A stretch of DNA of 64,000 nucleotides from Candidatus Latescibacterota bacterium. Its GTDB lineage: Bacteria > Latescibacterota > UBA2968 > UBA8231. This document shows positions 28,053 to 61,854 of this stretch, piece after piece (position 1 is the first letter of the stretch; the number at the start of each line of letters is the position of its first letter). Under the pieces are notes generated by a model. The model did no database searches. It saw only the letters and a program-made list of their open reading frames with translations, and was not told the DNA's origin. The translations under genes and the position numbers were made by a program. The stretch lies in contig JADZBP010000098.1 in the NCBI GenBank assembly GCA_020852055.1, forward strand, positions 1,262 to 65,261, in the 5' to 3' direction.

Positions 28053-28886
28053 TTAATGGGTTTTTGAGGCTCCCAGTTGGCGTTCGTCTATGGTCCAGTT
28101 CCTGGAACTCTTGAGCTTGCCGATCAGTTCCGCCAACCGCTGATGGTAGTCCTGGCGGACCAGGGCGTCGACGATCTGCGGGCGGACCTGGTCCAGTTCC
28201 TTGATGGTGCCGGCTTCCTGGCGGTCGAGCACCTGGACGAGATGGTAGCCGTACTGGGTCTGGATGGGCTCGGAAAGGGTTTTGAAGGGCAGGCCGCGGC
28301 AGGCTTCCCACAGGGTGGGGTTGTCGTCGGCAGAGAAATACCCCAGGTCCCCCCCCCGGCCCTTGGTTTCCTGGTCGAGGGAGTGCAGGCGGGCCAACTC
28401 CTCGAAGGAGGCGCCGCTGCGCAGGGCTTGGCGTTTGGCCACCGCGTCGTCCTCGGTGGCCAGCAGGATATGCAGGGCGCGGATCTCGGGTTTGCTGCGG
28501 CGGAATTCCTCGCGGTTTTCGGCGTAGTACTGCTGGATGGTCGCCTCGCTGACCTGGGTATCCTGGCCCTCGAATTCGGCGCTGAGCAGGGCGGCCACCA
28601 GCAGGTCGCGGCGGGCCTGCTCCAGCAACTGCTGGGTGCGGGGCTGCTGATCCAGTTTGCGGCTGAGGGCCTCCTGGTAGAGCAACTGCTCCTCGACCCA
28701 GTGCTCGACAAACTGCGCCTTCTCGGCGGTCCCCTGCCCCAGGCCTAGTTCGGCGGGCAGGAGATTGTCCAGGTCGGCGGCGGTCAGCACCGCCTCCTCG
28801 ACGCGCGCCACTACTCCGTCTTCAGTGGAGCTGGAGGAACAGGCGGCCAGGAGCCCGGCGCAGCACCACAGGAGTAGTCTCAGCAT
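28053..28886 (-). CDS. parvulin-type peptidyl-prolyl isomerase lipoprotein (PrsA/PpiC family)
   Basis: The ORF is trimmed to MLRLLLWCCAGLLAACSSS (lipobox). The parvulin core reads RALHILLA...GGDLGYFSADDNPTLWEA...TQYGYHLVQV. Confidence 0.85.
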   Translation of the reverse strand: MLRLLLWCCAGLLAACSSSSTEDGVVARVEEAVLTAADLDNLLPAELGLGQGTAEKAQFVEHWVEEQLLYQEALSRKLDQQPRTQQLLEQARRDLLVAALLSAEFEGQDTQVSEATIQQYYAENREEFRRSKPEIRALHILLATEDDAVAKRQALRSGASFEELARLHSLDQETKGRGGDLGYFSADDNPTLWEACRGLPFKTLSEPIQTQYGYHLVQVLDRQEAGTIKELDQVRPQIVDALVRQDYHQRLAELIGKLKSSRNWTIDERQLGASKTH

Positions 28887-52934: not shown

Positions 52935-52972
52935 GGGGCTGTTTCGCCCCCCTCCGAGGAGTGTTTTTGCCC

Positions 52973-55369
52973 ATGAGACGTGTATTGCCCTGGCTGCTGG
53001 GGCTGTGCTCTTGCATCGCCGCTGTCCAGGCCCAGGAGTCGGTGGGCACGGTGGTTTCGCCCTCCCGCTCGCTGACCAAGACCCGGGCGCTGCTCGACGC
53101 GGCCGACCTGCGGGTGCTCCTGCCGCTGGGGTACGCGGTCCAGCCCGAAGCCCCTGGCCTGCTGGCGGGGCGGCCCGGGGTGCTGGAGGCGCGGGTCTAC
53201 ACCCGTCAGCAGGGAGTCCTCGAACTGGCCATCGCCACCGGGGCTGCCGGCGGTTACGACTTTATCCTCTATGGCGGGCGCGATCCGGCCGGCCTGGAGG
53301 AGGTGCGCCCGCGTTTCGTCGCCCTGGTCCAGGGCAGCCGCAGCGCCATGCCGGAGGCGGTGGAGGTGGGCTACCAGATGTACGGCCTGGGGCATATCGA
53401 AGCCGACCGCGCCCTGGCCCTGCTCAAGGCCCTGGGGTACAGCAGCATCGAGTTTGAGGCCAAGGCCGCCGCCCCGGAAAGCTACGAGGAGATCTTTGGC
53501 CTGGTCGCCGGCAAAGACAGCCGGCTGCCGCTGGTGGTCAAGGTGGCCAACGCCTCTAAGACCAGCCTGCTGGCCGCCGACGCCAAGGGCAAGGCCGCCG
53601 CCCCGACGATGGGGGCGACCAAAGGCATCGAGGGGGCGCCACAGTTGGGCGGTTCCCACCTGCACGGCACCACCTCCGACGAGCCGCAGGAGCGGTTGCT
53701 GATCGTCTACGACCGCAACGACCCCGAGGCCCTGGAACGCCTGATCAACCTGCTGCAGACCCAGATCGACGTGGCGGCGCAGCAGATCGTCATCGAGGCG
53801 CTGGTGATCGAGGTCAATACCAACCAGTTGCGCGACCTGGGGGTGCAGCTCAACGGTTCGCAGGGTCACGTAAAGACCAGTTTCGAGACCTCGGACAAGG
53901 GTCTGGATCTGCCCTTCACCTTCCTCTTCTCCCGCGACACCTTCTCCGACTTTCTCTCCTTCAAGGGGCGGCTGGAGGCGCTGGCCGAGAGCGGCAACGC
54001 CAAGATCCTCTCCAGCCCCTCGGTGCTGGTGATCAACGACCGCCAGGCCCGCATCCAGGTGGGGCAGCAGATCCCGGTGGTGCGCTCCACCACCACGGTC
54101 TCGACCACCACCAGTTCAGTGGAGTACTTCCCCATCGGCATCGTGCTCAACCTCCGTCCCCGCATCAACCCGGAGGGCTCGGAGGTGACGATGCAGATCG
54201 AGACCATCATCAGCTCCATCTCCCAGACCAACGCCCAGAGTGGCAGCAGTTCGCAGGTGGCCTTTGCCCCGGTGGTGGACAACCGCCAGGTGGAGACCTT
54301 TGTGCGGGTGGCCGACGGCACCCCTTTCATCATCGGCGGGTTGCTGTCCACCGACCAGCAGGGCCGCAAGGTAGGCCTGCCGCTCCTTTCAAATATCCCC
54401 TTCCTGGGCGCCCTGTTTTCGCGCCAGCATTTCGAGCAGGGACGGCGCGAGGTGATCGTGGTCATCACCCCCCACATCGTGCCCCTCGAAGACAACAGCT
54501 TCAGCTACCTGATCCCCAAGGATTCCCAGCTTTTCGACCGCTTCGACACCCAGCTCTTCCGCAACGCCTACCGGGTGCGCGACGACGAGGTGTGGGATCT
54601 CAAGTTCATCCAGGAAAGCCCGGTCTTGCAGGATTTGCTGCGGCGGGTGCGCCAGGCCTGCCAGGTAGATCTGATGCTGCGGCAGGACGAGCGGGTCAGT
54701 CCCTTGTTGGAGGGCCGCATCCCCGGGGCGGAGGTGCTGGTCCGGCGCATGCTGCGCGACATCGTCGGCAAGCTGGAGTTCGACGACGAGGTGGATCTGG
54801 ACAAGGTCTTCTTCTTTGTGCCCGCCGGCGACACCGCGCAGCAGGATACTCAGGAGGACAAGACCCTCAGCGAGGTGCTGGACCCGGTGTTCAAAAACCC
54901 CGGCCACGCGCTGCTGCTCCGTTTCGAGGCGCAGACCACGCTGCGCCCGGGGCGTCCCTTCACCTATCCGGTGGCGGCGCTGCGCGACACCCTGGTTCCC
55001 GACCAGGAGGAGGAACGGGCAAACCTGCTGCGCAGCCTCAACCCGGTGGACCCGGAGGGCCGGCCCCGGCAGTGGACCATCCTGCTGGCCGGCCCCGACG
55101 ACGTGAAGCACCTGCGCCAGGTGCTGATCCTCAAACGCCTGCTCGAACTCAACAGCCGCCTGCCCCTGACCCTGCAGGCCTTCCACCCCGGACTGCAGAT
55201 CCTCTTTCCCAGCCGCGAGGACATGCGCAGCCGCTACCATCTGGTCGACCGGGAGGTGGCCCAGCTTTTCTACGAGACGTCGCCCAACCAGTACTATCCG
55301 GCCTTCGAGCGGAATTTCAACCTGAAGCTGCGCGAGGTGGAGAAGGTGTTGGGACGGAGGGGGAATTAG
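52973..55369 (+). CDS. secretin-family outer-membrane channel protein with long uncharacterised C-terminal extension
   Basis: I take the ATG at 52973 (TTG 52967 and GTG 52961 are alternatives). The signal peptide is MRRVLPWLLGLCSCIAAVQA. The secretin N-domain reads LLIVYDRNDPEALERLINLLQTQIDVAAQQIVIEALVIEV. The secretin core reads AKILSSPSVLVINDRQARIQVGQQIPV...PVVDNRQVETFVRVADGTPFIIGGLLS...GLPLLSNIPFLGALF...VVITPHIV. About 300 further residues have no motif I recognise. Confidence 0.88.
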   Translation: MRRVLPWLLGLCSCIAAVQAQESVGTVVSPSRSLTKTRALLDAADLRVLLPLGYAVQPEAPGLLAGRPGVLEARVYTRQQGVLELAIATGAAGGYDFILYGGRDPAGLEEVRPRFVALVQGSRSAMPEAVEVGYQMYGLGHIEADRALALLKALGYSSIEFEAKAAAPESYEEIFGLVAGKDSRLPLVVKVANASKTSLLAADAKGKAAAPTMGATKGIEGAPQLGGSHLHGTTSDEPQERLLIVYDRNDPEALERLINLLQTQIDVAAQQIVIEALVIEVNTNQLRDLGVQLNGSQGHVKTSFETSDKGLDLPFTFLFSRDTFSDFLSFKGRLEALAESGNAKILSSPSVLVINDRQARIQVGQQIPVVRSTTTVSTTTSSVEYFPIGIVLNLRPRINPEGSEVTMQIETIISSISQTNAQSGSSSQVAFAPVVDNRQVETFVRVADGTPFIIGGLLSTDQQGRKVGLPLLSNIPFLGALFSRQHFEQGRREVIVVITPHIVPLEDNSFSYLIPKDSQLFDRFDTQLFRNAYRVRDDEVWDLKFIQESPVLQDLLRRVRQACQVDLMLRQDERVSPLLEGRIPGAEVLVRRMLRDIVGKLEFDDEVDLDKVFFFVPAGDTAQQDTQEDKTLSEVLDPVFKNPGHALLLRFEAQTTLRPGRPFTYPVAALRDTLVPDQEEERANLLRSLNPVDPEGRPRQWTILLAGPDDVKHLRQVLILKRLLELNSRLPLTLQAFHPGLQILFPSREDMRSRYHLVDREVAQLFYETSPNQYYPAFERNFNLKLREVEKVLGRRGN

Positions 55370-55372
55370 ACG

Positions 55373-55810
55373 ATGAATACGAGATGCCTGCTGCTGGCCG
55401 CCCTGCTGCTGGCCGGCTGCGACGAACCAGACAAGGCCGTGACCCGGGCCACTGCGGACGGCCGCTTGTCCCTGTCGCTGGAGGCCGAAAAAAACTGGCT
55501 GCACCCCGGCGAGATCCTGCCGGTGCGGGTGCGGGTGGAGAGCTTGGCCGGCCCGCTGGCGCACGGGCTGGTGGACACCCTCAAGTTCGTGGCCAACAAC
55601 GGCACCCTGGCCCCCGCACTGCTGGTGGTGGCTTTTGCCGGCACCGCCGACAGCGCCGCCGTCGGGGTGGAGCGGGTATACGAGAACTGGATCTATTTCG
55701 CCGCCTCCGCCCGGGCCACGCCGCAGAACCAGGGGGAGATCAACGCCCTCTTCCAGGACAGCCAGGCCCTGCTCAAGATCCGCATCACCCCGCCGGCCGA
55801 GTCGCTGTAA
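55373..55810 (+). CDS. small lipoprotein of unknown function (candidate secretin partner/pilotin)
   Basis: 145 aa, starting 3 nt after the secretin stop. It has a lipobox (LLLAGCDEP). I see no recognisable family. Confidence 0.7.
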   Translation: MNTRCLLLAALLLAGCDEPDKAVTRATADGRLSLSLEAEKNWLHPGEILPVRVRVESLAGPLAHGLVDTLKFVANNGTLAPALLVVAFAGTADSAAVGVERVYENWIYFAASARATPQNQGEINALFQDSQALLKIRITPPAESL

Positions 55811-56040
55811 GCCGCCCTTCTTCCACCCGGAGGAACTGACCAACCCTTCCGCATCAGCTGGCCTGCCTGCGCTTGCTCAGATACGCGTTAGTTGTGCCAG
55901 TCTGCAATCCTGTCTGGGCCGGCTGCCGAGCGGTATCCACTTCTCGTAAAAAAAGATGCCCCTCGTTTTTAATTTTCTCTCTCTCCCTGCATCTATACTA
56001 CCAGAAACGATAAGCAACCCCTGAACTGTCTGAGGCAGTA

Positions 56041-57891
56041 ATGGCTGTCCTTCCCGCAGAAGAAAGCCAGTTGGTCCTGTGGTGCCGCGAAGGCCGGGCT
56101 GAGGCTTTTGGACCGCTGGTGCGGCGCTACCAGAACGCGGCCTATGCTATTGCCTGGGGTTATGTGCGCAACCGCCAGGATGCCCAGGATCTCGTCCAGG
56201 AGGCCTTCATCGCCGCGTACTGCAAGCTGGGGCAGCTTCACCAGCCCGCCAAGTTTGGCAGTTGGCTCTACAGTATCGTGACCAGCCGCTGCAAGGAATG
56301 GCTCCGGCAGCGAAGGCGGATCTCCGGCAGTGTACACTCCCTGGAGACTGCTGATCAAGAATTGGCCCGGATTGCTCAAGTCGAGCAGGCGCGCTGCACC
56401 CTAAAAGAAGAGCTATGGGACAGCGTGGGCCGGCTTCCCGAACAATTCCGCACGGTCGTGCTGCTACACTACCTGAGTGGCTTGTCCTATGCAGAGATCA
56501 GCACCTTTCTGGAACTTCCCGTTTCGACGATTGTCGGCCGGCTGCAACAGAGCCGGATACGCCTGCGAGAAGCCCTTTTACCCGACGAATTGGAGGCCAT
56601 CGATATGAGCAAGGTGGATGTCAGCGTCCAAGTACAGGAGGCGGTGTACCAGATCGCCGTCGAGCCCGTAACACTGAGAATCCCACTGGCGAGAACACGG
56701 CGGCTGGTACTCTACTGCGGCCTGGATGTAGAGGTCGAGATCCGGCAGGCTGAAGGGGATGAGGTTCTGCTGGAGGGCACCAAGGCGGCCATCGGCGCCT
56801 CGCCGGAGGCCGCCAGGGCCAGTGCCGAAGGGATCGAGATCCTGTATGACCAGGTGGCAGATTTCGTAGAGGCTGGCCCCCACGCGGGAGAAGAATTTAC
56901 AGGGACCGACAACCAGGACAGCCGGCCTGTGGCGGGAATTGCCCCCACCGCAGACATCTGGAGCCAGTACCGACAGAATACAGGATGGCGGATCGATCGC
57001 GGTGCCGATACCATCGCGCTGTATCCCTTTATGGAGGATGTGTTGGAGGTCCTGCCGGCCCGGTTGTCTCCCGATCTGCAGCAGGTGACCCGGATTTCCG
57101 TGATTCGGAAAGTAGCAGAGGATATCATCCTACCTCGCGCAGCCTACACCCCCGAGATCCAGAAGGTGTTCAACCCCAACAACACCAGCGATGAACGAAT
57201 GCACGGGCCGGTGGGGTACCTCCACCTGACCCTTTCCATTCCCCCCGGCAGTACTCTGACCCTGGTCGGGGGCAAGAAGGTTCGCATCCACGACCTGCGC
57301 GCCTCCATCAACCTGATCTCATCGGGTGTCGAAGAATTAGCCCATCTTGAAGGAAACATCCGCTTATTAAATACCAACTTCAAAACCGCGAGCGATCTCA
57401 AGGGCAGCTTCTACCAGCGGTTCCACAGCTACTCCGGCACCAGTTGGGCTGGCTACCAAGCTAGTCGCTCAGAGACCTGGAGTTCTAAGATCGAAAAGGT
57501 CCAGGGAGAAGTGGAAATCGATGTGGGCAAGGTGGAGCTTGAGGTGGCTCACTTGAGTGGCAAGGTGTCTATCCGCAACCGCCACGGCAACACCCGCCTG
57601 TACCAGGGCCAGCTTCGACAGGAGGATCGTATCCACCTGGAGTCTTGCTCTGGGGAGATACGCCTGTTCTTACAAGAAGACCTCATCCCCCAAGCAAGTC
57701 TGATGGCCACCACCCTTTGTGGGGCAGTCAGATATGATAGCCTGCGGGATCTGGACGGCTTCAAGCAGGGAAACACGCTGCAGTTGATTGCCTTTGGAGT
57801 GCCCGCCGGGTTGTCCTGGGAGGAGTTGCACGATGCCAATTTCCATCTCAAGACCGAGAGCGGGGATATCACTATCGAAAAGACGAAGTGA
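56041..57891 (+). CDS. ECF (group IV) sigma-70 factor fused to an about 430-aa C-terminal DUF4097-like beta-helix domain, no TM segment
   Basis: Region 2 reads FGPLVRRYQNAAYAIAWGYVRNRQDAQDLVQEAFIAAY...SWLYSIVTSRCKEWLR. Region 4 reads LPEQFRTVVLLHYLSGLSYAEISTFLELPVSTIVGRLQQSRIRLREAL. The C-terminus carries repeated SG.[IV].[IL] strands (SGKVSI, SGEIRL, SGDITI), as in DUF4097/putative-adhesin domains. Confidence 0.85.
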   Translation: MAVLPAEESQLVLWCREGRAEAFGPLVRRYQNAAYAIAWGYVRNRQDAQDLVQEAFIAAYCKLGQLHQPAKFGSWLYSIVTSRCKEWLRQRRRISGSVHSLETADQELARIAQVEQARCTLKEELWDSVGRLPEQFRTVVLLHYLSGLSYAEISTFLELPVSTIVGRLQQSRIRLREALLPDELEAIDMSKVDVSVQVQEAVYQIAVEPVTLRIPLARTRRLVLYCGLDVEVEIRQAEGDEVLLEGTKAAIGASPEAARASAEGIEILYDQVADFVEAGPHAGEEFTGTDNQDSRPVAGIAPTADIWSQYRQNTGWRIDRGADTIALYPFMEDVLEVLPARLSPDLQQVTRISVIRKVAEDIILPRAAYTPEIQKVFNPNNTSDERMHGPVGYLHLTLSIPPGSTLTLVGGKKVRIHDLRASINLISSGVEELAHLEGNIRLLNTNFKTASDLKGSFYQRFHSYSGTSWAGYQASRSETWSSKIEKVQGEVEIDVGKVELEVAHLSGKVSIRNRHGNTRLYQGQLRQEDRIHLESCSGEIRLFLQEDLIPQASLMATTLCGAVRYDSLRDLDGFKQGNTLQLIAFGVPAGLSWEELHDANFHLKTESGDITIEKTK

Positions 57892-57974
57892 GTCCCTTGG
57901 AGTGTTGTAGAGTGGCTTGGGGTATGGAACAGCTGGAAACCGGGTAGACCGACAGAGGGACGAGTGTGTCCAAA

Positions 57975-58012
57975 CCCCGCCGTCGGTAGCTCGACGGGGG
58001 GGTTTCTTTTTT
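57975..58012 (+). terminator. intrinsic terminator after the ECF-fusion gene
   Basis: The stem ccccgccgtcg / cgacggggggg has one mismatch and is followed by TTTCTTTTTT. Confidence 0.8.
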
Positions 58013-58101
58013 CACTGAACCTTGGTGCAGCGGCTAGTGTCGTACAAGTAGGGGTTCCACTATGGGTTTTGTCGAGCCTCCACTTCAGCAAGGAGACGTA
58101 T

Positions 58102-60543
58102 ATGGCTAGGTGGTCTAATCGGGCGTGGTGGAGCGCGATGCTGTGGTGTATCTCTTCGGGACTGACCTCGCCCGCTCTTGCAGAGGAAGGAATGGTACCC
58201 AGGAGGACCATGTCGGCGGTGCGCGTGAATCCCACTCCTCCCAAGATCGATGGCGTGCTGGATGACGGGGTGTGGCAGTACGCACCCCGCTTCGGCGGTT
58301 TTACCCAGCGCATTCCTGACGAAGGGAAGCCGGCCACCGACTCCACCAGTGTCCAGTTCGTCTATGACGACAAAGCGCTTTACGCCGCGATCATGTGTTA
58401 CGATAAGGAACCGGGCAAGATTGCCACTCGGCTAGCTCGTAGAGATCAGTTTCCCTACAGCACTGACTGGGTTCACCTGAGTATCGACTCCAACCTCGAC
58501 CGTCAGACAGCCTATTCCTTCTTTTTAACCGCAGCCGGGGGGCTGCTGGACGGTTACTACTACAACGACGATTTGCAGGACTGGACCTGGGACGGGGTGT
58601 GGGAAGGACGCGCACACATCGGTGACCAGGGCTGGAATGCGGAGTTCAAAATCCCCTTCAGCATCCTGCGTTTCAGCCCCCAGGAAGAAAACGTCATGGG
58701 GGTCAATGTGGACCGCTTCACTACTCGCAGGAAGGAGAACGTTTTCTGGGCGTTTATCCCCGAAAAAGAGAAGGGATGGGTCTCTCGCTTTGGTGACCTG
58801 AGGGGGATCAAAGGCATTTCCCCGCCTAAGGCTCGGGAAATCCTACCCTATGCAATAGCCCGTTCTACCTTCGAGCCCAAGAACCCCTCGAACCCCAATG
58901 GCCGGGGCTCCTTCACCAACCTGGGTGTGGACATGCGTTATGGGTTGGCCTCCAACCTCTCTCTGAACGCTACCCTCAACCCAGACTTCGGGCAAGTGGA
59001 AGCAGACCCGGAAGTGCTAAACTTGTCGGTGTTCGAGACTTTCTACGAAGAACGCCGGCCATTTTTCGTGGAAGGCAATCAACTTTTCCAGACGCCTTTC
59101 CAGCTTTTTTATTCGCGGCGGATCGGCCGGCAGCCTGGGCGCATTGGCCTCCCTATAGGGTATACGGAGATCAGTAGGCCGGAATATACCAGTATCCTGG
59201 GGGCAGCCAAGCTGACGGGTAAGAGCGCGGGTAAGACCAGTTTTGGGTTGATCGAGGCGATCACTGGCGAGGAGCACGCCACCGGTCAGGCCGTGGGTCT
59301 GGGTGTGGATCGCCTCCTGGTGGAGCCCCGGACCAACTATCTGGTGGCCCGGTTACAACAAGATTTGCTCAAGGGGAACTCCAATATCGGGGTGCTGGCC
59401 ACGGCCACCAACCGCGCCCGTTCCGGGACCGCTTATGCCGGTGGAGTGGACTGGAACCTGTTTTGGCGCGAGAACACCTACCAAGTAGCCGGCCAGGTGG
59501 CTGGTAGTCGAACTGCGGATTTCGGGAAAAGCCACAGCGGGTATGCAGTACAGGCCGAACTGGGCAGGCCGGCAGGCCTAGTGCAGGGCAACCTCCGGTA
59601 CGAGGCGTTATCGCCGGGCTTCAATATCAATGACCTGGGTTTTGTTTCCCGTGTAGGCACCCAGACCCTACAGGTCTGGTTAGGTCCGAGGCAATACCAG
59701 CCCTGGGGACCCTTTCGCGAGCGGTACCTCGATGTGGACGCGAATCTAAGCTGGAATTACGACCACCTTGTATATAAGAAAGAACTGAGCATCAGTCCTT
59801 CTTTCGCGCTGAAGAACTACTGGTCCATCTGGGGTGGAATGTCTCACAAGTTCCAAACTTTGGACGACCTGGATACCCGAGGTGGGCCACCCATTGAGCA
59901 GCCTGCCAGTACCAGTACCTGGTTTGGTGTGCAAAGCGATAGACGCAAGCCCCTCGGCGGACAGTTTCGATTCAATTGGGCGCGCAATACGGAGGGCAGC
60001 ACTCGGCACTCGGTGAGCATAGAGGCCGAGGCGCGGCCTTCGACCCGGGTAGAACTGAGCCTTCAGCCAGGCTATACCTGGAATGACAACGATGCCCAAT
60101 GGGTGACGAACGTGGATGACGGCGACGACGGCACCCAGGACCACTTTGTCTACGGGGAGCTAAAGAGCCAGGTGTTTGAGGTGACAGGTCGCTGTAGTTG
60201 GGTTTTTGCCCGCGATCTGACCCTGCAGTTCTACCTACAGCCCTTCGTGGCCGTGGGAGACTATGGAAATATCAAGGAATTGGCCAGGGCCAAAAGCTAT
60301 GAGTTCACGCCCTACTCAGGCCTAACCAGCAACCCTAACTTCCGCCAGCGGTCGTTGCGCAGCAACCTGGTGTTGCGCTGGGAGTATCGGCCAGGGAGCA
60401 CCCTCTTTATGGTCTGGTCGCAGTCCCGGCAGGCCAGTGCCCAGGAGCCGGATCTGCGGCCCTATGCCAACTTGCGGAAAAGTTTTGCCGACGAGGGGAC
60501 GAATCTATTTCTGATGAAGCTGAACTACTGGATGAACATCTAA
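58102..60543 (+). CDS. CBM9-like + DUF5916-type outer-membrane protein
   Basis: The ATG at 58102 sits behind AAGGAG and gives a signal peptide (WWSAMLWCISSGLTSPALA). The N-terminal carbohydrate-binding-family-9-like pattern reads PPKIDGVLDDGVWQYAP...YDDKALYAAIMCYD...DWVHLSIDSNLDRQTAYSFF...GWNAEFKIPFSILRF. A long beta-rich C-terminus ends in an aromatic-rich terminal strand (KLNYWMNI). Confidence 0.75.
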   Translation: MARWSNRAWWSAMLWCISSGLTSPALAEEGMVPRRTMSAVRVNPTPPKIDGVLDDGVWQYAPRFGGFTQRIPDEGKPATDSTSVQFVYDDKALYAAIMCYDKEPGKIATRLARRDQFPYSTDWVHLSIDSNLDRQTAYSFFLTAAGGLLDGYYYNDDLQDWTWDGVWEGRAHIGDQGWNAEFKIPFSILRFSPQEENVMGVNVDRFTTRRKENVFWAFIPEKEKGWVSRFGDLRGIKGISPPKAREILPYAIARSTFEPKNPSNPNGRGSFTNLGVDMRYGLASNLSLNATLNPDFGQVEADPEVLNLSVFETFYEERRPFFVEGNQLFQTPFQLFYSRRIGRQPGRIGLPIGYTEISRPEYTSILGAAKLTGKSAGKTSFGLIEAITGEEHATGQAVGLGVDRLLVEPRTNYLVARLQQDLLKGNSNIGVLATATNRARSGTAYAGGVDWNLFWRENTYQVAGQVAGSRTADFGKSHSGYAVQAELGRPAGLVQGNLRYEALSPGFNINDLGFVSRVGTQTLQVWLGPRQYQPWGPFRERYLDVDANLSWNYDHLVYKKELSISPSFALKNYWSIWGGMSHKFQTLDDLDTRGGPPIEQPASTSTWFGVQSDRRKPLGGQFRFNWARNTEGSTRHSVSIEAEARPSTRVELSLQPGYTWNDNDAQWVTNVDDGDDGTQDHFVYGELKSQVFEVTGRCSWVFARDLTLQFYLQPFVAVGDYGNIKELARAKSYEFTPYSGLTSNPNFRQRSLRSNLVLRWEYRPGSTLFMVWSQSRQASAQEPDLRPYANLRKSFADEGTNLFLMKLNYWMNI

Positions 60544-60723
60544 CCCTTTTCTCTGCGGAAAGTCTATGGACACCAGTTTTCGCGCTGAGATCCGGAGATG
60601 TCTGACGGAGACCGGGAGCCTTTATGCGCTGATCCTAGTCTTGGTCGGGCTGTACTTCCTGCTCGGGAATGCACAGGTACTATTCTCCTGCAACCCGACT
60701 TTCTCTAAAAACTCAGCGTTATA

Positions 60724-61854
60724 CCAATTGCCACACTTGGTGTCATAAAATCTGAATCAGAGTTCATCGAGCGAATCACAAATCCACTGCCATCCAGCTA
60801 GCGATCTGACTTGATCTGGATTAGCCGCCAGTAGCCGTAGTTCATGCTCAACCACTGCCATCTTGGCGGTCAGCGTGCCATAGACTTTTCCTTCGACGGT
60901 CGCACGCAGATGTTCGAAGATGCGTTCTGCGGGATTCAACTCTGGGGAATGCGGCGGTTGTTCGATGCGCTTGACCTTCAGCCCGGTATAGGCCTCTCCA
61001 CGGTGGCCTCGCCCGCGATCCCAGACCAGTGTGCGTAGCCCGTGGCGTGCCCAGTTTCGGACTACCGGCGCCAACGTCACGCCTTTCAGGTTGGGGACCC
61101 AGGACCAACGTAGGGTCCCCCGCAAGGGATTGACCGTCAGCGCCAGGTACTGCCATTGATGGGTATACTCCAAATGGTTGGACAACTTTCACCCCGCGCG
61201 GTGCCCACACCCGACGCACTTGCCCGATCAGTCCCACCCGCATCTCATCCGCCCAGGCAATTCCCTGCACGGTGGTTACCCCCGCTGCTTGTAGCGCCCT
61301 GGTCAGGCCCCTTTTTTCCAGGCTCGTTGCTGGGTGCGGGAAGCCTTGGGATTACAGGATCGAGGCACCTTCTTCTTCAATTGAAGCCGTGCAAACACCC
61401 AGCGCATACCCCAATAGGTATAGGACACCCCCTCGGCGGCAGCCCAATGCACCCCATCCCAAACCGAACGGATTTCACCAGCGGCGGCTTTGGCAGTCAA
61501 GGCCGTTTCCTGGGTCGGACTCAAACGCCGGGCAGAGCAGCCATGACCGCCAACCGAATGCTTACCGACTTCTGCCAAGCCTCCTTTCCGATACCAACTT
61601 ACCCAGCGATGGAGCGTGCGGTAGCTCCGCCCCACAGTATCTGCCACTTCGCTCAACCCTTTACCCTGACGCAAAAGCATCAATGCCTGCAACCGGCTTC
61701 GTCGATGGTGGTCCCGTTCGCGACTATAATGCAGAGCTAGTTGCTTCCTACTATGCCGCCACGAGATGACCAAGGACCGTCCCATCAGTGCTGCCTCCTG
61801 AATTCTGCATACTCTCCCCGGAGCATAATTCATGACAGCAAAGATGACAATTGG
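60724..61854 (-). mobile_element. IS630-family insertion sequence (1131 bp) flanked by TA
   Basis: The imperfect terminal inverted repeats start CCAATTGCCACACTTGGTGTCAT (left, 60724 onward) and CCAATTGTCATCTTTGCTGTCAT (reverse complement of the right end, 61854 downward). TA lies immediately outside both ends (60722-23 and 61855-56). The interior encodes an IS630-type transposase. Confidence 0.85.
60757..61785 (-). pseudogene. IS630-family DDE transposase, reading frame interrupted twice
   Basis: The protein is spread over three ORFs. The N-terminal HTH ORF (61303-61833; MGRSLVISW... probably starts at 61785) comes first. A middle frame follows (...GIAWADEMRVGLIGQVRRVWAPRGVKVV). The C-terminal DDE part is last (YLALTVNPLRG...LVWDRGRGHRG...PPHSPELNPAERIF). 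The first shift coincides with A-AAA-AAG (61311-61317). The second, near 61185-61195, restores the original frame. Confidence 0.8.

Follow-up and report, generated by a model that had tools for sequence, protein, structure and literature searches.

How is an extracytoplasmic function (ECF) sigma factor controlled when no anti-sigma factor is encoded beside it and a large soluble domain is part of the same polypeptide? This question is raised by a gene at positions 56041-57891 (+ strand) of a 64,000-nt stretch of chromosomal DNA from a Candidatus Latescibacterota bacterium. The whole stretch is called the window here, and coordinates without a locus label refer to it. The host is Candidatus Handelsmaniibacteriota-like, since its Mfd has 90% identity to the protein of a MAG with that name and 68-70% identity to proteins of Latescibacterota. 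The open reading frame (ORF) is uninterrupted, starts with ATG and encodes 616 amino acids (the stop codon is counted in the coordinates); a GAGG Shine-Dalgarno sequence is located at 56032-56035, 5 nt upstream of the start codon. An initial annotation, made without database searches, had described the product as an ECF sigma factor fused to a DUF4097-like domain that might regulate it in cis. The explanation that we favor, with a probability of roughly 0.55, is a self-contained single-polypeptide ECF signalling module, in which a Toastrack-like (DUF4097-like) domain would act as regulatory input in place of an anti-sigma factor and the gene would be autoregulated.

The ECF sigma core and its fusion to the extension

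The N-terminal 180 residues are a canonical ECF sigma factor, which is selectively maintained. Sigma-70 region 2 (residues 26-93; 56116-56319, + strand) is matched by PF04542 (Sigma70_r2) with an E-value of 1.4e-15, and region 4.2 (residues 123-175; 56407-56565, + strand), the helix-turn-helix that reads the -35 element, by PF08281 (Sigma70_r4_2) with an E-value of 2.1e-10. The NCBIfam model TIGR02937 (sigma70-ECF) reaches 84.5 bits against a cut-off of 42.9, and the best specific likenesses in NCBIfam are SigW-, SigY-, RpoE- and SigM-type models, none of which attains its own equivalog cut-off. The protein has the ECF layout, with a short linker between the end of sigma2 at residue 93 and the start of sigma4 at residue 123, and the Pfam scan gave no further sigma-region match for region 1.1 or region 3. 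With Foldseek the sigma part was matched to AlgU, SigW, RpoE and SigH. In the homologue alignment the residues A48, D50, Q53, F72 and W75 of regions 2.2-2.4 are invariant, as are L132, P160, S162, T163, G166, R167, L168 and L175 of sigma4. These sequence and domain features assign the protein to the ECF sigma family, as had been annotated, and it is predicted to bind core RNA polymerase and to use promoters.

The absence of the usual membrane-bound control elements was confirmed as well. No transmembrane helix was found in the fusion protein, where the maximum Kyte-Doolittle mean over 19 residues is 1.25, and the HxxxCxxC zinc anti-sigma (ZAS) motif was not found. No anti-sigma-like gene is adjacent in the window, and neither an anti-sigma gene nor a transmembrane segment or ZAS motif was detected in about 37 related loci. 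For L001, a homologue with 68% identity, the possibility that a HEAT-repeat gene on its upstream side encodes a ZAS-HEAT anti-sigma factor was rejected, as the product is a P-loop NTPase-HEAT protein without ZAS motif.

The initial annotation had named a frameshift or an assembly error, joining a sigma gene and a DUF4097 gene between 56.55 and 56.65 kb, as the finding that would overturn it. No point in support of such an artefact was found, and we give this explanation practically no weight. A word-indexed search retrieved at least 56 full-length homologues of 600-672 aa with 37-92% identity and 98-100% coverage, all with the unbroken architecture and coming from many assemblies, including closed chromosomes of metagenome-assembled genomes (MAGs). 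The closest of them (L058) stems from an independent metagenome assembly and shows the same order of a lipoprotein gene, the fusion gene and the N-terminus of a DUF5916 gene. Its fusion gene is 92% identical to that of the window at the amino acid and 90.6% at the nucleotide level with zero indels within the ORF. The differences fall 35/21/99 on the three codon positions, a third-position bias that continues across the junction, and the codon changes, 91 synonymous versus 49 non-synonymous, are scattered over sigma part, linker and extension. A chimeric junction is therefore very unlikely, and these comparisons indicate that the fusion is under purifying selection.

The same fusion, for which a database search had been proposed, is thus found widely. 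Scanning one genome per species yielded 37 full-length loci in Latescibacterota, Gemmatimonadota, one member of the Phycisphaerae and unclassified MAGs, several of them on closed chromosomes; the family is spread over Handelsmaniibacteriota, Latescibacterota, Gemmatimonadota and some Planctomycetota. Five genomes (L003, L019, L021, L023 and L031) carry the fusion gene as a tandem duplicate. When the extension alone was used as query in an exhaustive profile search against 1.84 billion representatives (E<=1e-3), 325 matches were obtained, and all those that span the whole extension are sigma fusions, because the alignment begins at about residue 190-205 of proteins of about 600 aa. Three apparent stand-alone extension proteins (P0094, P0101 and P0089) were discarded; two are truncated by the end of their contig, with a reading frame that is still open on the upstream side, and the third has in-frame sigma4.2 sequence upstream. 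Thus, no stand-alone full extension exists among the 1.84 billion representatives, which also speaks against the joining of two separate genes. A distant clade (P0123, P0126, P0138 and others) has just 20-25% identity and the identical sigma-plus-extension architecture; therefore, the fusion is old.

Fold of the linker and the extension

Sigma4 is connected to the extension by a linker of about 25 aa (residues ~176-203; 56566-56649, + strand) that is conserved in length and sequence across the family. Counted over residues 176-204 it has 26-35 aa with a median of 29, M189, D193 and V198 are present in at least 90% of the members, and the mean column identity is 0.64. AlphaFold2 was run on the full-length alignment and separately on the extension alone. 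In the full-length model (predicted TM-score, pTM, 0.66) the per-residue confidence (predicted local distance difference test, pLDDT) is 85-90 for sigma2, 50-67 for sigma4, below 50 for residues 187-201 and mostly above 90 for residues 204-616. The extension-only model is nearly all-beta and reaches a pLDDT of 90.9 and a pTM of 0.90, from which we conclude that the extension forms one rigid domain.

The extension (residues 204-616; 56650-57888, + strand) is soluble, acidic and, as modelled, an all-beta domain related to Toastrack/DUF4097. A sequence-profile search of the extension against the PDB sequences gave nothing significant. In the Foldseek search against the PDB, however, the top 13 matches are all Toastrack/DUF4097 'putative adhesin' structures, with 4qrk as the best (E 5e-6, probability 1.00), followed by 4opw, 3lyc, 3pet and 3jx8 and, lower, 3ljy and 4ygu. 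Toastrack entries are the sole matches with a probability above 0.25, and the sole other entry above 0.1 is 7muc_AM from the Legionella Dot/Icm type IV secretion system (rank 14, probability 0.25). SG.I.[IL] strand repeats, on which the DUF4097 assignment had been based, are present at residues 488-495, 506-513, 537-544 and 607-614.

The assignment has to be qualified in two respects. PF13349 (Toastrack DUF4097) matches the window protein at residues 491-612 with an E-value of 8.7e-4 and 19.2 bits, which is under the gathering score of 22.9, and among 13 family members only 3 are matched at E<0.01 (19.2-20.9 bits, likewise under this score). In addition, the fit to the Toastrack structures gives target-normalised TM-scores of 0.29-0.47 and root mean square deviations of 11-15 A over 420-444 aligned columns, against targets of 167-246 residues; with about 415 aa the extension is about double the size of the solved Toastrack structures. 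We therefore use the name 'Toastrack-like' only. The models describe an enlarged and highly divergent Toastrack-like domain and not a bona fide PF13349 member, so that the DUF4097 likeness noted initially holds for the predicted fold and the strand repeats and does not reach the Pfam threshold.

Sigma core and extension show a similar degree of conservation. In the core family the extension is acidic (median isoelectric point 5.1, net charge about -16) and the sigma part basic. Of the cysteines in the core family, C560 is invariant and C61 (in sigma2) and C226 are nearly so, whereas C15 is more variable, being S or A in some members. G279, P280, H281 and G283 of a GPHxG loop (residues 279-283) are invariant, too. 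None of the residues C61, C226, C560 and GPHxG is retained in the distant fusion clade, which rules out a universal metal or redox site at these positions. An acidic 'DNA-mimic' extension as general mechanism was also rejected, as several distant members have basic extensions. With the acidic charge, the cysteines and the GPHxG loop all missing from the distant clade, a common chemical mechanism is not implied for the family as a whole. Outside the fusions, secreted proteins of about 520-550 aa with a signal peptide and a coiled coil (P0163, P0176 and about 40 similar representatives) match only the beta-helix half of the extension, at profile positions 198-370. The beta-helix module therefore occurs both inside and outside the cytoplasm.

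Promoter and control of the fusion protein

Upstream of the fusion gene we found a conserved ECF-type promoter motif (55966-55998, + strand), consisting of the -35-like TTTTTAA (55966-55972), a 17-nt spacer and the -10-like CATCTATAC (55990-55998), which lies about 43 nt before the ATG. Of 36 family genes, 24 carry the family motif TTTTTRA-N16-18-CRTCT(W)TA at -53 to -94 from the start codon, and these include clades that share just 36-50% protein identity. Where a gene lacks the motif, it precedes instead a co-oriented upstream DUF2268-DUF4932-sigma operon, and therefore it marks the operon start. With a position weight matrix (PWM) for the family motif the promoter of the fusion gene is the top match in the whole window (28.0 bits). 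The corresponding regular expression has 2 matches in the 64-kb window versus 0.22 expected; the second one (28062-28090), between the minus-strand genes for SurA and a neighbour, is probably due to chance, as is a PWM match at 26007-25966 without the CGTC core. Since a CGTC-type -10 element and this spacing are typical of ECF promoters and the motif is conserved family-wide, we infer that the fused sigma factor drives its own promoter. The same promoter and leader are found elsewhere in two relatives, once as a copy followed by a truncated 5' gene remnant (L054:7900-8150) and once ahead of a TolC-like ORF (L004:17288-17315), which is a possible regulon member or a duplication scar.

At its 3' end the transcription unit is followed by an intrinsic terminator (57972-58012, + strand), a GC-rich hairpin with U-tract of -28.1 kcal/mol (z -2.83), for which none of 200 shuffled sequences was as stable. 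The gene is therefore predicted to be monocistronic in the window, its transcription unit being closed by this terminator. A simple scan for sigma-70 promoters and terminators between 55.3 and 58.4 kb had returned nothing, and the terminator was missed because of one internal mismatch. Folding of an A7-N11-T5 element upstream of the -35 element gave no stable hairpin.

C-terminal extensions are the second commonest mode of ECF regulation and anticorrelate with anti-sigma factors (PMC7826278, PMC8999054). The family fits the class of ECF factors with C-terminal extension and no anti-sigma factor, as the extension is kept in at least 56 proteins and no anti-sigma-like gene is present in the 37 loci. 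ECF41, ECF56, ECF205, ECF294 and ECF295 (SnoaL-like) and ECF42 (TPR) likewise have an ECF core followed by a conserved soluble domain, no transmembrane segment, no anti-sigma gene and an autoregulation-type promoter. However, their extensions are SnoaL or TPR domains of 100-200 aa instead of a Toastrack-like beta-helix of about 415 aa, they occur in different phyla, and the extension of the fusion is not predicted to touch the sigma2-sigma4 linker. As SnoaL and TPR gave no Pfam match in the fusion protein and the extension is all-beta, it is not of the ECF41/42/56 type. Very long soluble extensions are also known from ECF57 and planctomycetal ECFs, where they are variable (WD40-like and others; Pinto et al., 2020, PMC7671368), and the nearest non-family relatives of the sigma core carry large soluble C-terminal domains, namely HEAT, ankyrin, BNR/Kelch propellers, DUF3108-like domains and enzymes. 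In contrast to such a patchwork of captures, the fusion family keeps one specific extension across phyla, under purifying selection, and is set apart from the ECF57-like factors by description.

DUF4097 had been said to be found mostly in trans beside sigma/anti-sigma pairs, which agrees with the published four-gene context of a sigma factor, a zf-HC2 anti-sigma factor with HEAT repeats, one or more membrane-anchored Toastrack proteins and DUF2089 (Ravi et al., 2024, PMC11237479). That study predicts a scaffold role in the cytoplasm for Toastrack, linking membrane-proximal signals to transcription, places it in sigma/anti-sigma operons and mentions 'fused or associated HTH' in generic terms only (PMC11237479). 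Common to this context and the fusion are an ECF-type sigma factor and a Toastrack domain for which a cytoplasmic orientation is predicted. The published context consists of separate components with a membrane-anchored Toastrack and a ZAS anti-sigma factor, whereas the fusion is one soluble polypeptide without anti-sigma factor, of the Rosetta-stone type. In LiaF, VraT, LiaG and YvlB of the envelope stress response of Firmicutes, Toastrack is the regulatory partner of a transcription-controlling protein, and the fusion may work alike; these proteins, however, are anchored in the membrane and target a histidine kinase in trans, and the extension of the fusion is sub-threshold to the Pfam model. 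ECF48, ECF52, ECF53 and IutY (ECF243) also unite sigma factor and regulator in one polypeptide, but they have a ZAS or FecR-like domain plus transmembrane helices and are activated by regulated proteolysis; the fusion lacks both of these elements.

In the classification and review literature searched, compared by group descriptions, no ECF group has a Toastrack/DUF4097 extension and no Gemmatimonadetes group is mentioned, and the full-text search returned no paper in which a sigma factor is fused to DUF4097/Toastrack. The architecture, which the initial annotation had not recognised among the described groups, is thus undescribed in the searched literature as far as the Toastrack-like extension is concerned, while ECF factors with fused regulators are themselves a recognised class. 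Few types of ECF extension have been studied so far (SnoaL, TPR and Cys-rich), and to these the family adds a soluble Toastrack-like extension that is large, structurally well predicted and spread over several almost unstudied candidate phyla. As it joins components that are otherwise separate in sigma/anti-sigma/Toastrack operons, it offers a testable handle on the role of DUF4097/Toastrack. It should be of moderate interest to specialists of ECF factors and Toastrack, mainly because the natural fusion makes the relation of the two directly testable. With one protein and one promoter (55966-55998 plus the ORF) the pair is compact, and heterologous testing is feasible although the host is uncultured.

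How could the extension act on the sigma factor? In the favored module the sigma factor would transcribe its own promoter and, by analogy, would be controlled in cis by the Toastrack-like domain, which would substitute for the anti-sigma factor as regulatory input. Most likely, other proteins would dock on this domain, and the engagement of core RNA polymerase by sigma2 and sigma4 would depend on whether the docking surface is occupied, a scheme akin to the 'activation by protein interaction' of the ECF42 type or to the gating of kinases by LiaF/VraT. The structure prediction and contact check that had been proposed gave the rigid domain and its Toastrack matches, but the extension was not docked with confidence on sigma2 or sigma4, nor were sigma4 and the linker placed confidently on the extension. 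A compact autoinhibited state like that of SigJ (ECF41) is therefore not predicted, and a partner-dependent mechanism is favored over ligand-triggered occlusion in cis.

In many relatives the docking partner may be a co-transcribed duplicated permease of the MacB_PCD/FtsX type. It is the commonest operon partner; 12 of the 37 loci have it directly downstream in the same orientation (gap 17-132 nt, often 17) and 8 have it directly upstream, with an arrangement that differs between two clades, and it would be the best partner candidate in these genomes. More specifically, the Toastrack domain could dock on the cytoplasmic face of such a membrane machine, so that the sigma factor is sequestered or released by the activity or load of the transporter. 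We regard this specific version as tentative and rather unlikely; if true, it would amount to 'flux sensing' built directly into a sigma factor and would assign Toastrack its first mechanistic function in sigma/anti-sigma operons.

Several points weigh against the self-contained, autoregulated module and its partner-dependent control. Regulation of the sigma factor by the extension is presumed by analogy, the extension is not confidently placed on sigma2 or sigma4, and recognition of the motif by this sigma factor, and not by another one, is an inference only. The Toastrack membership is sub-threshold in Pfam with low TM-scores, and the acidic charge, the conserved cysteines and the GPHxG loop are not retained in the distant clade. 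As to the partner, the window gene has no adjoining permease, no neighbour is kept across the whole family, and the Latescibacterota loci are phylogenetically non-independent. Furthermore, the MacB_PCD/FtsX family is very abundant in these phyla, and therefore some adjacency is expected by chance.

Two other mechanisms were weighed against this module. The extension might be no switch but a constitutive component of the holoenzyme that is required for folding, activity, localisation or factor recruitment, like the essential TPR domain of ECF42, with regulation at the transcriptional level only. The similar conservation of sigma core and extension, the monocistronic gene with its own promoter in the window and the lack of predicted docking on sigma2/sigma4 are consistent with this, and part of the ECF41 extension is needed for activity while the ECF42 extension is essential (PMC8999054). 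However, an autoregulated ECF factor without negative control would be a runaway positive loop, the well-studied ECF factors of this kind all have a post-translational brake (PMC7826278), and a rigid 415-aa domain would be costly if its role were purely structural, so that we consider a constitutive extension unlikely. Alternatively, the extension could be an inhibitory pro-domain that is cut at the linker, freeing an ECF sigma factor of about 190 aa, akin to pro-sigma processing, BldN and IutY. Proteolysis is an established mechanism for extended ECF factors (PMC8999054), and the linker combines a conserved sequence and length with predicted flexibility. In one clade a DUF2268/GldB-like zinc protease gene follows the family promoter (L019:5748-9875, L023:5687-9806, L039:6733-9860, L031:5383-9872), and the sigma fusion comes next, either directly (L031, L039) or after a DUF4932 gene (L019, L023). 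Both products are metalloprotease-like (HExxH in DUF2268, HEFGH in DUF4932), and this suggests a protease-sigma operon in the clade. But such genes are confined to it and absent from the window, the known proteolysis-regulated fusions have a transmembrane segment or an anti-sigma domain, both missing here, and the cleavage site is hypothetical. Cleavage of the fusion protein is thus quite improbable in our view.

Neighbouring genes

The gene downstream of the fusion gene encodes a CBM9/DUF5916 surface protein (DUF5916 E 3e-80) and lies behind the terminator, as initially annotated. As listed, its ORF starts from GTG 57964 and traverses the terminator at 57972-58012; therefore, ATG 58102 (MARWSNRAWW..., with a signal peptide) is preferred and is almost certainly the true start. 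The gene had been proposed as a plausible regulatory target of the fusion protein, and a search for conserved linkage of the two had been suggested. DUF5916 genes are indeed located just downstream in the window, in the close relative L058 and in L012 and L038, and a generic ECF-like promoter (TGAACC-N19-CGTAC) is present at 58016-58045 (+ strand), between terminator and start codon. However, these are only 3 of about 37 independent lineages (window/L058, L012 and L038), so that the linkage is not a conserved one. The family motif is absent upstream of the DUF5916 gene, where the best PWM score is 7.1 bits versus 28.0 at the fusion gene, and the strong terminator separates both genes. The TGAACC...CGTAC element is unlike the motif of the family and might belong to any other ECF sigma factor, which may drive the DUF5916 gene. 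The proposal that DUF5916 is the main target is therefore doubtful, and we see little chance that it is correct.

Upstream of the fusion gene a secretin gene (52961-55369, + strand) is followed after 4 nt by a gene for a 145-aa lipoprotein (55373-55810; lipobox LAGC). The secretin ORF has 802 aa with the Secretin domain at residues 340-507, an unusual placement that leaves about 295 C-terminal residues without Pfam match. The lipoprotein, which is kept in L058, may be a pilotin.

The GC content drops from about 0.66 to about 0.57-0.60 at positions ~56000-61833, exactly over the sigma-fusion and DUF5916 genes. This segment ends at minus-strand remnants of an IS630-like transposase with split frames (a helix-turn-helix ORF at 61303-61833 and a DDE_3 fragment at 60757-61185) and may be an acquired or rearranged island. 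The homologues L001 and L002 adjoin toxin-antitoxin clusters. In the distant clade, the fusion P0126 (L060:2157-6772) has on its upstream side genes for a methyltransferase and for a PhyR-like protein, which combines a sigma-like domain with a receiver, and on its downstream side the gene for a second, short ECF sigma factor; this locus may be a multi-sigma regulatory cluster.

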